Shown here: piece by piece, positions 40,866-64,000 of the stretch
Layout of the letters: the number at the start of each line of letters is the position of its first letter
Numbering within the stretch: the stretch's first letter is position 1
Sequence record: NC_135728.1
Direction: 5' to 3' (one strand)
Origin: a phage
Length of the DNA stretch: 64,000 bases
Made by a program: the position numbers and the translations under genes
Notes under the pieces: generated by a model
Told to the model about the DNA's origin: nothing
What the model saw: the letters and a program-made list of their open reading frames with translations, nothing else
Database searches by the model: none

Positions 40866-41425
40866 TCAGCCAGAAATATCTGAACAGCCAGTTATACCAC
40901 GATTTTGTGCTTGTCCTACAGGAGTGCTTCCCTGTCAGGAGCCGGTAGCGACTGGAGTGCTGCCAGGCGGACGAAATGGGAATACTTCTCATTCTTATAA
41001 CAATTCTCAAATATCGAGGCAGTGAGGCAAATTAATAGGTGAGGCCGTTCACACAGTGGCACAACATTTGCAACCTATCTTGTGGGATTGAATGAGAATA
41101 CCTATCATTGTGAGAACTGTTATCATTACGGGCAATTTAACATAATACCCATTATGCGCACCACTGGCGATACATACAGGGATTTATAACATGAGTTACT
41201 GTTTACGTATATAACAATTATATTTCTTACTATTTGTGTGGGATATAGTTAGCAGCCGATAGATTAGATATTGACCTGCAGACTTCCAACCGTCTAGACG
41301 TCTAAACGCCCACACAACAAGGTTTATACATACATTACTGAATGTAAACAGGGCCGCAAAAATGCTACCATACAAGATTGTAAATTTTTCATGCAGCACT
41401 TGACAAAGAGGAGAAAAACTTGTCT

Positions 41426-41505
41426 GACACTTTAGACACAATAGTGACATAATATGACACCTTTGACACACTGGACACATTAAACATAATTGACATGCCT
41501 GACTG
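41426..41505. repeat. iteron-like array of GACA(C/T) repeats phased every 9-11 bp
   Basis: Eight copies: GACAC, GACACA, GACAT, GACAC, GACACA, GACACA, GACAT, GACT. Confidence 0.6.
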
Positions 41506-41540
41506 TTTACATAGCTAACTATTTACTAAAAAATGATAAG

Positions 41541-41852
41541 CCATGCCATTCGTTTGCATGATAAAGATTAGCAAGTTAATAATCTTTCGCTGGCTATGCC
41601 AGGTGACCTTTGGTCACCCCTTCGGGTGTTTCTATGACATAATATAAAAGCAGGGCAACTATTAGCAGATCATAGTTGCCTTGCTTGTTAACACCCTTGA
41701 GACGAAGGCTTTGCCTGAGTTTATGTCATGATTAACTAAATACAAGGCAACTATGATCTGATTAATAGTTTGCAGACAAACTATCACGGGGGTGATGGTT
41801 ACTGCTTTTATATTATGTCGCGACTCCGTCGCGCCATGCCATTCGTTTGCAT
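41541..41852. repeat. nested repeat complex: 19-bp direct repeat, 18-bp inverted repeat and internal palindromes
   Basis: CCATGCCATTCGTTTGCAT at 41541 and 41834; GACATAATATAAAAGCAG (41636) inverted at 41802; GGTGACC-TTT-GGTCACC; GGCAACTAT-N9-ATAGTTGCC. Confidence 0.6.
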
Positions 41853-42477
41853 AGTTGCCTTATTGTTACGAATAAAACAATTGCATTGTTAATGATTTCT
41901 TATCTTTCTCTTAGTCATCTAATGATTCCAGTCAGTCTAGTAATGTACAGTAAACATTAGACGACTAAAGATTTCCCTGTTTATGATAACTCACCGTGAT
42001 AATTTCAGGCTGTTTACTAAAAATGTTGACACCTAAGCTGATTTATGTTATGCAGTTTACACGAATAATTATTTTATGCAGGTATTGACTATTCCGTTAT
42101 TCTATGGTTGGAATAAATACTTAGCAGACTATAGAATGGTGAGCGTACGTAAATTCTGAGATCTGGCGGCTATAGTTATACTCGATTTTTCACGTAGAAC
42201 ACGCTTTTGTGAGTGTGTAAGTGTATGACTTATAAAGATTTTTAGTTGTTGACAAGATATTGAAGATGTGCATCAGGTTAAATTTTGTGCAATAGCGGCA
42301 TTACGTGCAATTCTGAGAGAGAAAACGGGTAAAAATGGCCCTGCTACCACAAGATGAAAGATTATGCAATAGTTATTTTTATATGTATATTTGTACAGTA
42401 GGGTTAATTGCTGGCTTGTTGATTATTCCACTTGCCAGGTGGGGCCGTTTGTGGTAGGAGAAATACAGACAAAAAGA

Positions 42478-42508
42478 AAGGGGCCTTTTAAAGCCCCTGA
42501 TAGTTTAG
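42478..42508 (-). terminator. rho-independent terminator of the leftward block
   Basis: On minus strand GGGGC-loop-GCCCC followed by TTTCTTTTT, just past gene 42517-42936. Confidence 0.6.
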
Positions 42509-42516
42509 TTAAGAAA

Positions 42517-43678: not shown

Positions 43679-43896
43679 AGTGTTTTCCTCTCTTCTGGTT
43701 GTTGTGTGGGCACCTTTGCCCCTTCAAGATAAATGTTACCCCACCCCCTGGCAGATGTCAACGGTTTTTATAGTTCTTATATGACAGGCAGGCCTGGTGA
43801 TTGTCTCCCCCTGTTCCCAAGTGCCGCCCGTTTAATAAGAATAGCAAAAGGGGCCGAACAAGTCAACCCCAAAATCAGTACCAAAACACTTTTTAT

Positions 43897-52811: not shown

Positions 52812-52899
52812 GATTTTTTATCCTCTTTGTTAATTAGTGCGGTGTTGTTCACCTTGCGATAATAAGAATAACAAGAACTGCCCGAGCTGTCAACCATTA

Positions 52900-53860
52900 T
52901 GTAAAATTATTTTTTGGGTAGAATTCTCCAGCCGCCACCCCTGCCAGGTTTGCAAGCTTTCACTCTCCCACCTGGTCAGTTAGGTCCTGCTAGGGCTGGC
53001 CCCGCCAGGTTGCAGCAGTTGACGCACTATGTTAGAAAAATTTTTTGAAAAGTGTTGACAACGGCCCCACCAGGTGGCACAATATACATATCGAAAGGAC
53101 GGCAGGCACCGGTGACGGGGGAGACAACCACCGGGGATGGGCGCTGCATAAAATGAGAACGGTTATCATTATCATTTAAAAATTTATGCAAAAAGTCCTT
53201 GCTTTCTTTGTCCTGTGTGATACTATAATAACAAGCCGGGGCAGCAGGGGCCGGGAGACAATCACCGGGCCTGCCCGTTATTCTGCAAACGAGAATGATT
53301 ATCATTCAAAATTCTAAATGAGAACTCCTCGCATTTAATAAATTTAATTAGCATGCTAATTACCATCCGTAACAATTTCCTATAAAACAGTATCCACTAA
53401 AATATTCCCATATAGAAATTTTAAAAATCCATTTCTGAAAACGAAAAATCGATTTCGTCCCCAAAAATTTCAGGTCGAGAGCCGGAACGATTTCCAGAAA
53501 ATCCGATTCAGAAAACGAAAAACAGATCGAGTACTGAGAAATTTATCGAGAAAAATTTTCAGAAAATTCAATCTTTGAAATGAAAAACAGATCGAGTACC
53601 TGGAAAGCTGCACCGCAACTTCAAGATAGTGGTTAGATTGTTACCATAGAAGGTCAAGGGTAAGTGGAGGGAGTTATAGTAGAAGGATGTGAGTATGTGC
53701 AGGAAATCTGTAATGGTGGTCTGGAATATGGTGCAAACGATAGGATGGGTGATTCAGCTTGTCGCGCCCACTCTGAAAAAATCCATTTTAGTTTTCGATC
53801 CATTTTCTGATTTTCTAAGGATTTTAAAATATCCAGCCCGGTGAAATATCAAAAGGAGGA
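52900..53860. repeat. about 1 kb ORF-poor region with several direct-repeat families
   Basis: CC..CCAGGT-type motifs; two related 80-nt units containing GGGAGACAA(C/T)CACCGGG and GAGAA(C/T)G(G/A)TTATCATT; three GAAAACGAAAAACAGATCGAGTAC-type repeats about 70 bp apart; AAATCCATTTTAG repeats. Confidence 0.55.
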
Positions 53861-53882
53861 AATCCATTTTAGAAATCCTCCT
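53846..53882 (-). terminator. probable rho-independent terminator
   Basis: On minus strand GGAGGA-loop-TCCTCC followed by TTTTGATATTTC, just past gene 53913-54242. Confidence 0.45.
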
Positions 53883-53912
53883 TACACTTGATATGCCAGG
53901 AATTTTCAAGTA

Positions 53913-62207: not shown

Positions 62208-62483
62208 CAATAGTTCAGGTAGGTCGTTAAGCTACCCCGCACCATTACGTGCATAGCCATACGTTTTCACGTAGGATCGGACCATCTCATATTCCTATGA
62301 TAAGCAACCACAGGAATCCTCCCATTTCGACCGCACTTGCTGGTCTACTTCCTTTCGGAATGGCCTCTGAGCGTTCGCTCTTTTGAGCGCTTCGTTGCGG
62401 ATTACCTTGCCATAAGGTTTAGGCTTCCCGCAGTTAAAGAGGTTATTCGACATAGATTACTCTATGAAGCCACAATGTTATTT
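62208..62483 (-). ncRNA. putative group I self-splicing intron (276 nt) in the DNA polymerase gene
   Basis: Interrupts the ORF between the H and D codons of motif C; exon ends in U, intron ends in G; GUGG guide 11 nt into intron can pair with exon CCAU; P-like CUGCGGGAAG, Q-like AAUCCGCAAC, P7 strands GACCA / UGGUC. Confidence 0.65.
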
Positions 62484-64000
62484 ATGGTAATAAATAATAC
62501 GACGAACACCTTCATCGTACCACCCACGCTTCACCATTTGGTGGTGCATGAGTATCCCAACTAAGTCACACAGCGATGCACCACCATTTTGTTGGTATGC
62601 ATTAAGTAAAGAGTGTTTAGATCTGGTCCAGATAGCATGACCATCGAAAGAGTAGATAAACTTCTTACCTGTTGCTTCCCAGAATTTCTCCAGATCCTCT
62701 TTGCGCCCCTTAAGACCGGGGTTGGCATCCCAAAGTGCATCTATTACCCTTTGCCCCAACTCTGGAGAGATGTCCAACATATCTGCAACTTTATCTTTTT
62801 GTGCCCCGTACATAACACCATACGTGATAGGTTTACCGTCGTTACGGGACACCTCTCTGCCTGCTACTTTTGTATATGCCTCGGCATTGTTTTGGTGTGC
62901 GTCTCCGTTACTTACAACATCATAATACAGGCCGTTGTCGAACTCAAAGGCACCCCAAGCCCCGATAAGCTGCTCTAAGTTGGACCCGTCAATACCGATC
63001 TGAAAGTATCCGGGAGGAACACCCCATAGACTACGCATCTCTTTACCCATAACCACTTTAGGAGATGGTTTAGGCATGTTTGCACAAATACTGTGTTTCT
63101 GTCTGGAAGTGTTTGTTAGCCCAGAACTTTTAGCAGGAAGCTTATGGTCAATCTTCAAACGTGGGTGATTAAGAAGACCAGTATCAACCTTATCCTCCTT
63201 GATTGGGTCAAGGACCGATCTGCGGTTTCGCAATGATAACCACAAGACGATATCTTTAGCCATCTCTCCGTTCAATTTTTCAAGATTCGGACACAGGTGT
63301 CCAAACGTATCTTTCAGTTGCGGAGAAGTAATAAGTGCCCTGGCTTTTCTACGTATTTTCCCGAACACTTCCTTTTTAATCCTTTCGGAGTTAGGAAAGC
63401 TTCGGAACTTGTGCACGGTTGTCTGGAACTTAGCATCAGTTTTGTTCCAGAAGTTGATAATTAGGTCACAATACTCTGACTCTAAAAGCTCGTCCATATA
63501 AGCATATACTCGTGCATCAACATCTGCATCAGGTAGAGCTTTCTTCTTGCTGTCTTTAGTTACATCCTTAGTTCTCCACATTGTCGGGAGCCAGCCAGCG
63601 CTGATCAGATACCGCTTAATGTCGTCCTGATTGCTGATTTTCATAGGTATCTTGCAGTCCGGCATTCGCTTCTGCTGTAGATCACTTATTGCCTGATCCA
63701 TCAGCTCTTTAGGCAAAGGGTGTGGTGTGGAAGTTCCCTTAATATAGCCTCTCAAGAAATCAGCCATCTTATCGGGGTCTTTGCAGCCCATCTCTTCACA
63801 CCATTTTATCCCCATCTTGCTGACATCCCCTGTAGAGGTAAATGCTCTCTTAGGCGGGGCTTTGAACTCTAAAGCGCTCATGTCTACAGGATAGCCAAGC
63901 TTATCTTTTAACCATTTCCAACCATTATTAGAGATTGTCCCGTCTTGGTTAAACGGCTTTTCAGGGAACTTGGGCCGCTGAGACATTGACAGCTCTTTTA
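62484..64000 (-). CDS. DNA polymerase family A, exon 1 (partial; N-terminus may lie beyond the window)
   Basis: Motif B-like KPITYGVMYGAQ; ends ...VRRIIYYH (cf. Pol I RMIMQVH-DE); reading frame stays open upstream of the track start at 63986. Confidence 0.8.

Follow-up and report, generated by a model that had tools for sequence, protein, structure and literature searches.

A Conserved Promoter-Leader Module at Two Loci of rV5-like Coliphages, Most Likely Encoding a Folded Leader RNA

Introduction

Judged by analogy, the nearest functional counterparts of the element described here would be the put RNAs of HK022, and the boxB hairpins of nut sites may also be close. The put RNAs are ~70 nt long and made of two stem-loops, and each genome has two of them, which act in cis on RNA polymerase as protein-independent processive antiterminators; the structure of putL starts at +3 of the early PL transcript (PMC9378689). 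The module resembles them in that a predicted structured RNA lies right behind an early sigma-70 promoter, with the 5' end of the transcript within the structure, and also in its two to three copies per genome, its two short stem-loops and its location in terminator-rich early regions. Compared by described architecture, it differs in that put is V-shaped, with two long stems, a triplex and no closing stem, whereas a ~55-nt hairpin or three-way junction is predicted here. The phages that carry the module are large lytic myoviruses rather than lambdoid phages, and two of its three units point away from genes.

The boxB pentaloop of P22 is GACAA, and the predicted apical loop of the module can have this very sequence, in a likewise promoter-proximal location. 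In contrast to the nut sites of lambda and P22, the stem is bulged and its closing pair is not conserved. Matches to boxA (YGCUCUUUA) number 33 in the window vs 30 expected, with none at the elements, and no N-like arginine-rich early protein was found among the window ORFs; the lone arginine-rich N-terminus among them belongs to a zinc-binding protein and precedes the start that is conserved in its family. Origin promoters (T7 phi1.1A/B, T4 oriF/oriG and pR at ori-lambda) offer a further likeness, namely tandem promoters directed into an AT-rich, iteron-bearing, gene-free region, but none of these is known to carry a conserved structured leader.

The rV5-like phages (Vequintavirinae, Stephanstirmvirinae) are widely used candidates for therapy and biocontrol; their replication origin and temporal control await definition, and the majority of their early genes are uncharacterized. 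A gene-free “non-coding” box was noted in the rV5 genome paper (PMC3606486), and neither transcript maps, small RNAs nor the motif string were found in the literature on rV5-like phages. The present element was initially recorded, in a first-pass annotation, as a 25-nt protein-binding repeat; a conserved promoter-leader module is the more fitting description, and the module is previously undescribed, with no match in Rfam, E. coli genomes or the searched literature. Together with its Fur-box-like operators and the repeat-rich regions nearby, the module provides testable handles on the control of early transcription or the start of replication. If it is true that the leader acts on RNA polymerase, put/nut-type control would extend beyond lambdoid phages.

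Phage and Genomic Context

The window, the whole 64,000-nt stretch of sequence record NC_135728.1 that was analysed, is 98% identical to Escherichia phage Murica and belongs to an rV5-like E. coli phage of the genus Vequintavirus; ~300 rV5-like phage records (Vequintavirus) match it. From ~40 kb to 64 kb the annotated genes all lie on the minus strand and are small, “hypothetical” and early, with many sigma-70 consensus promoters and intrinsic terminators scattered among them. The proteins encoded beside the units gave no informative families. About 20 “Campylobacter jejuni phage” records (e.g., MG065690.1) are 93-98% identical to E. coli Vequintavirus genomes, and their host label is doubtful.

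Copies of the Repeat

The repeat is real and not a chance occurrence. The 23-mer GGGAGACAATCACCRGGCCTGCC has exactly two exact matches in the window, at 43787-43809 (-) and 53253-53275 (+), and none in 100 dinucleotide shuffles, which confirms the earlier report of a 25-nt element common to the minus strand at 43.8 kb and the plus strand at 53.1-53.3 kb. Its 14-nt core, GGGAGACAAYCACC, has three window copies, at 43796-43809 (-), 53119-53132 (+) and 53253-53266 (+), the one at 53119-53132 being the third and diverged; for the complement of the core, no site was found in the window. The search was extended genome-wide in phage A135 (deposited as “Campylobacter phage A135”), a complete 143-kb genome ~98% identical to the window, which holds the same three copies and no others at ≤2 mismatches. 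A covariance model run on that genome likewise recovered the three known copies, the remaining hits being at chance level. No copies are expected by chance, and the view of a shared, functional-looking element is borne out by these counts and by the conservation described below.

The 25-nt repeat is the conserved centre of a ~55-nt element that stands behind three dedicated early promoters. The genome thus carries three promoter-leader units, A at ~43.8 kb (-), B at 53.1 kb (+) and C at 53.25 kb (+), in each of which a sigma-70 promoter on the same strand, usually with an extended -10, precedes the copy by 25-37 nt.

Anatomy of the Three Units

Unit A begins with the TTGACT-17-TATTCT sequence that had been reported as promoter-like upstream of the 43.8-kb copy and is indeed present at 43866-43838 (-). 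This promoter (43838..43870) is TG-extended, with its -35 at 43866-43861 and its -10 at 43843-43838, and it is interlocked with the terminator-like hairpin of the upstream gene (43870-43850, -): the TTGACT lies within the loop, and the T-run of the terminator is the spacer of the promoter. This compact composite is kept in phAPEC8, ESCO37, nepoznato, CR8 and one further relative. The predicted leader (43785..43831, -) has its +1 at about 43831. Its predicted outer stem pairs CGGGCGG (43830-43824) with CUGCCUG (43791-43785) and encloses a predicted small hairpin, CUUG-GGAA-CAGG (43821-43810), followed by the core GGGAGACAAUCACC (43809-43796). Beyond the leader comes an AT-rich spacer with the AACTATAAAA repeat (within 43733..43784, -), which is present in 2-3 copies in JeffSchatz/nomine, and then a second strong promoter, TTGACA-17-TAACAT (43761-43733, -), for the gene at 43678-43406.

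Both 53-kb copies also stand behind promoters on their own strand, a point that the first-pass annotation had missed. They lie in non-coding region 1 (52812..53912), where the flanking genes are all on the minus strand; B and C therefore run opposite to all of them, and no plus-strand ORF of note and no terminator follow. The promoter of B, TTGACA-17-(TG)CACAAT, has a conserved GC-rich spacer (53055..53083, +), and its orthologue drives a different element in UPEC06 and others. The leader hairpin of B (53102..53147, +) is predicted to pair GCAGGC with GCGCUGC in the outer stem, and includes the small hairpin CCG-GUGA-CGG (53109-53118) and the core GGGAGACAACCACC (53119-53132). It is followed by a Fur-box-like operator, AATGAGAACGGTTATCATTATCATT (53152..53175, +), which matches the Fur consensus at 16/19 positions. 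Unit C starts with TTGCTT-16-(TG)TACTAT, which overlaps a TATAAT (hexamers 53199-53226, unit 53199..53229, +). Its leader hairpin (53229..53288, +) is of the best-conserved type and is found by the covariance model with 49.9 bits (E = 6e-10); a predicted outer stem of GGGCA with UGCCC surrounds the core (53253-53266), after which comes an invariant ATTCTG. Two Fur-box-like operators follow, AACGAGAATGATTATCATT and the weaker AATGAGAACTCCTCGCATT (53288..53335, +).

A GC-rich motif, ..GCCAGG(T/G)G.., occurs inside the -35/-10 spacers of promoter B (53061-53077, +) and of the gene promoter after A (43755-43739, -), and it is also found in UPEC06 and JeffSchatz; the CCCYGCCAGGTT repeats upstream of B (52939-52950 and 53000-53011) carry it again. 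Its conservation within spacers suggests a factor-binding site. A 92-aa ORF (53027-53305, -) runs antisense across B and C; it is annotated as hypothetical in Murica (CPT_Murica179, no ribosome-binding site annotated), and small CDSs are similarly called over the element in several records. These calls are probably over-annotation of a non-coding region.

Conservation in Related Phages

BLAST searches with the two loci matched 167 and 271 phage records, so the repeat proved to be conserved in relatives as well as commoner than chance would give. About 25 distinct phages, together with metagenome contigs, were compared: Murica, isim, JeffSchatz, nomine, rV5_ev156, EduardKellenberger, MiataMamis and APECc02 (Vequintavirus); PVP-SE1, SSE121, EspYZU08, LNA4 and FENT2 (Seunavirus); CR8, CR9, POP15 and P7_Pc (Certrevirus); phAPEC8, ESCO37, nepoznato and phiWec181 (Phapecoctavirus); SD2 and ECGD1 (Justusliebigvirus); and the unclassified relatives ABPH49, UPEC06 and A7_1. 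The promoter-plus-element unit is present in all five genera and in unclassified relatives, at two syntenic loci across Vequintavirinae and Stephanstirmvirinae, and most other intergenic DNA cannot be aligned among these genera. The A-type unit is found in the early block, on the gene strand and directly after a terminator; the C-type unit is found in a gap of ~1 kb that is free of genes, on the opposite strand. Synteny of the A locus is further seen in the upstream gene, 64% identical to CR8 gp158, and in a downstream gene, 90% identical to phAPEC8 gp246. By sequence comparison, A, B and C are paralogues, and A and C are orthologous to the units at the two syntenic places in both subfamilies.

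A promoter of the form TTGnnn / 16-18 nt spacer / TAnnnT precedes the element in 32/32 instances from the ~25 phages, with TG before the -10 in 27, and the distance from the end of the -10 to the core is 25-31 nt, or 37 nt in the B type. The only invariant portion of the element is the asymmetric GAGACAAWCACC, and variants of the core include AAGAUAAUCACC, GGAGGUAAUCAC, GAGUACAAAACACC, AGGAAAGUCACC and GAAGCAAUCACC. The bases after CACC vary freely in relatives (AGGCC, GGGCC, GGGGA, GGACC, GAACC, ACCCC, GGAAG). An origin from E. coli found no support, 53060-53330 having no match in 5,426 complete E. coli genomes. A scan of IMG/VR with GGGCGGCACYTGGGA returned ~120 unrelated GC-rich contigs and was uninformative.

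RNA Structure or Duplex DNA

For each of the three copies in the window, the promoter strand gave a better fold than its dinucleotide shuffles, with z = -2.6 (A), -2.7 (B) and -2.55 (C); on the opposite strand, C folds no better than its shuffles (z = +0.16). In all instances the RNA's predicted 5' end base-pairs with the sequence that follows the core. This outer stem is paired in 85% of cells for the C types and in 79% for all types, model-aligned, against 34-59% with a slid partner, but shuffle controls for cells paired (35/500 and 65/500) were not significant. Double compensatory changes in the stems are few, and the register of the outer stem differs between phages. Pairing between cognate 5' and 3' strands did not exceed that between non-cognate ones (permutation p = 0.99), and the two DNA strands had equal duplex energy. 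Applied to a naive MAFFT alignment of the full set of 31 instances, RNAalifold gave no consensus structure, since the register of the helices changes from one subtype to another; the subtypes were therefore analysed separately.

Within the A/B types 100% of the cells of the small hairpin, C(C/U)UG-loop-C(A/G)GG, are paired, and the pairs change as CG/UG/UA and UA/UG. Six different GNRA sequences serve as its loop (GGAA, GGGA, GCGA, GUGA, GAAA and GCAA), with two exceptions (GGAG and AUG). The apical hairpin, GGGA-GACAA-UC(A)CC, is paired in 84% of cells in these types and is not formed in several C types. Its loop keeps the pattern G-N-Y-A-A (GACAA, GAUAA, GGUAA), and the pair that closes the loop is broken in 5/16 and is not conserved (A-U, A.A, A.C). 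Across the stem cells, G.U outnumbers A.C by 36 to 17. Flanks that keep a hairpin through wobble-type changes, together with the GNRA loops, point to the transcript rather than to duplex DNA. The modelled RNA structure is likely, with weak formal covariation, and an RNA-level function appears somewhat more likely than not.

Given the weak formal covariation, the reading of the core as a site in DNA keeps some probability. According to this alternative, the asymmetric GAGACAAWCACC, at ~+20 to +35, would be an operator in duplex DNA, bound by a phage or host protein that blocks or activates the promoters, and the hairpin would be incidental. Such an operator would agree with a core of invariant sequence between varying flanks, with covariation tests that are not significant and with units that adjoin obvious protein sites, namely palindromic operators; the fixed distance from the promoter fits it too. 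However, the core is non-palindromic, six GNRA loop sequences are maintained, the small hairpin shows wobble-only changes, G.U exceeds A.C (36:17), and C folds significantly on the promoter strand only. The CCGG/GGCC half-sites, from which a shared protein-binding site had been proposed, vary in relatives, and that proposal is not supported, given a promoter spacing and orientation fixed in 32/32 instances, a location in the initial transcribed region and hairpin flanks. An operator of this kind is considered unlikely.

Comparison with known RNAs did not assign the element to a family. At gathering score, Rfam 15 covariance models matched neither the window nor any of four relatives, and around the elements they gave only noise at E ≤10. 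A scan for intrinsic terminators reported none at the elements, whose tails (UAUUCUG, UCAUAUAA, CAUAAAAU and UAUAUA) have no U-runs; the hairpins are therefore neither ordinary terminators nor self-contained small RNAs.

Proposed Mechanism

The ~55-nt element is most likely a folded leader RNA and not a double-stranded protein-binding site, and it is likely that its functional form is the nascent RNA, whose 5' end closes a hairpin with the segment after the core. The first base of the leader would coincide with the transcription start of its early promoter or lie only a few bases from it; these promoters are of host type (sigma-70), mostly with an extended -10. In the A/B type, two features are predicted within the hairpin, namely a helix of 3-4 bp that ends in a GNRA tetraloop and an apical loop of the pattern G-N-Y-A-A that carries the core. 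By analogy with put and nut, the folded leader would act in cis, either on the RNA polymerase by which it was transcribed or through a factor recruited to that enzyme, and transcription could then continue past the downstream terminators and arrays of Fur-box-like operators into the two large non-coding regions. Taken as a whole, this predicted action in cis of a nascent structured leader on transcription is the best explanation at hand, and it is advanced tentatively.

Every unit, including a second copy in PVP-SE1, points toward non-coding region 1 or 2. This direction, and the confinement of the Fur-box-like operators to the same two regions, give the impression that the three units, the operators and both non-coding regions belong to a single regulatory system. 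A benefit from antitermination is harder to see at the level of genes, as B and C are antisense to the neighbouring early genes and the promoter after A could alone serve its gene. In the boldest and rather improbable version of the leader mechanism, the module would represent a new class of promoter-proximal regulatory RNA of large lytic coliphages, which makes host RNA polymerase resistant to roadblocks and terminators or licenses an origin, and which, through its wiring to the Fur-box-like arrays, puts entry into the two non-coding regions under the control of host iron status or of a phage repressor.

Operators and Non-Coding Regions

The Fur-box-like operators are 19-bp palindromes, AATGAGAAT-N-ATTCTCATT, with four sites in the window vs 0.07 expected, all in the two large non-coding regions (40975-40993, 41091-41109, 53152-53175 and 53288-53306, with a weaker site at 53317-53335). 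One such palindrome follows each of B and C, ahead of iteron-like 50-nt repeats, and tandem operator copies are found after C at the equivalent place in all genera. They resemble the E. coli Fur box, GATAATGATAATCATTATC, in being palindromes of the 6-1-6/7-1-7 type, and differ from it in the half-site, which is GAGAAT in the consensus and GATAAT here. Read on the minus strand, 53155-53173 shares 16/19 positions with the E. coli Fur consensus, and POP15 and CR8 contain a perfect Fur core, AATGATAATCATT. From this similarity, regulation by the Fur protein of the host, or else by a repressor of the phage itself, may be envisaged.

Non-coding region 1 contains, downstream of B and C, three iteron-like repeats of ~50 nt (53411-53599; AAAATCCxATTxAGAAAACGAAAAACAGATCGAGTAC), and UPEC06 has four different iterons (GAAAAACCYCTCAAGTTCT) at the equivalent place. 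The iterons make the region a candidate replication origin. Non-coding region 2 (~41000-42516), toward which A points at ~41.0-42.5 kb, includes nested perfect 18-nt inverted repeats (41636-41653/41802-41819 and 41666-41683/41743-41760), a 20-nt direct repeat (at 41540 and 41833) and a 30-nt block (~41135-41165; TTTAACATAATACNCNTTATRCGCAC) conserved in PVP-SE1, ABPH49, POP15 and CR8. Many deposited genomes start or end within it. The second unit of PVP-SE1, with its own promoter and operator, enters the equivalent of region 2 from the opposite side.

These surroundings suggest a closely related alternative to the leader mechanism, in which the units supply the promoters and 5' leaders for non-coding RNAs that activate or prime replication in the adjacent repeat-rich regions, and the hairpin stabilizes or positions the RNA, by analogy with ori-lambda activation, the primary origin promoters of T7 and the R-loop origins of T4. 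B and C would fire into a gene-free region of 1.1 kb with iteron-like repeats, with neither a plus-strand ORF nor a terminator after them, and other genera have their own iterons at that place; A and the second PVP-SE1 copy point to the second region with its nested inverted repeats, and the origin of rV5 could not be defined in its genome paper (PMC3606486). Against this, a second promoter, three genes and a terminator lie between A and region 2 in the window, R-loops would form less readily with the G-rich 5' half tied up in a hairpin, and the repeats are the sole feature that marks the regions as candidate origins. Like the operator, an origin-associated transcript is regarded as doubtful.

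Less probable still is a trans-acting small RNA or protein sponge, i.e., abundant short RNAs whose loop pairs with host or phage mRNA or titrates an RNA-binding protein. Multiple copies, strong promoters and a conserved single-stranded core would suit such a role, and GGA motifs recur in the loops, but no copy is followed by an intrinsic terminator (the tails read UAUUCUG or UAUAUA), the window offers no complement of the core, and GGA is expected in G/A-rich sequence. That the units are neutral duplicates, a promoter region copied within the genome whose similarity reflects shared ancestry, is very improbable: A, B and C are clearly paralogous, but both loci and the same core have been retained across two subfamilies while other intergenic DNA diverged beyond alignment.

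Other Known Elements Considered

Apart from the folded leader, which remains the preferred reading, several known elements were considered and rejected. GACAAT fits the NANNNT of a sigma-dependent pause element, but its T is A or C in half of the instances. A match to the RfaH ops element (GGCGGCACYTGG, 8/12) is without the essential T6 and too near +1, and a TGGCAC recalling a sigma-54 promoter has the wrong GG-to-GC spacing. Neither a DnaA box nor an IHF site fits. Mimicry of a CRISPR repeat is unlikely, as likeness to the type I-E repeat needs two insertions. A CsrA sponge was dismissed since GGA, though frequent, is expected in G/A-rich RNA, and a terminator on the opposite strand since its U-rich tail is not conserved in other genera.

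Further Observations

The orthologue of promoter B in Seunavirus, Certrevirus, Stephanstirmvirinae and UPEC06 is followed by a near-invariant GC-rich element of ~95 nt (..ACGCCACCCCACGGCGAAAAGGCGGGGCUAAC..GGAAGGUGGAUCGCCGGUAG..), which has no Rfam match. It is predicted to form a long stem with a covarying inner hairpin and a possible CCCC/GGGG pseudoknot, and on this model it is a candidate for a second new RNA. Region 1 of other genera also includes one small plus-strand gene upstream of the RNA elements, the product of which is either a protein of 80-88 aa of no family (Stephanstirmvirinae, UPEC06) or a DUF7170 protein (PVP-SE1, LNA4); neither has a homologue in the window. Elsewhere in the early region, a group I intron is located at 62258-62493 (-) (Rfam RF00028, 64.7 bits, E = 4e-14).
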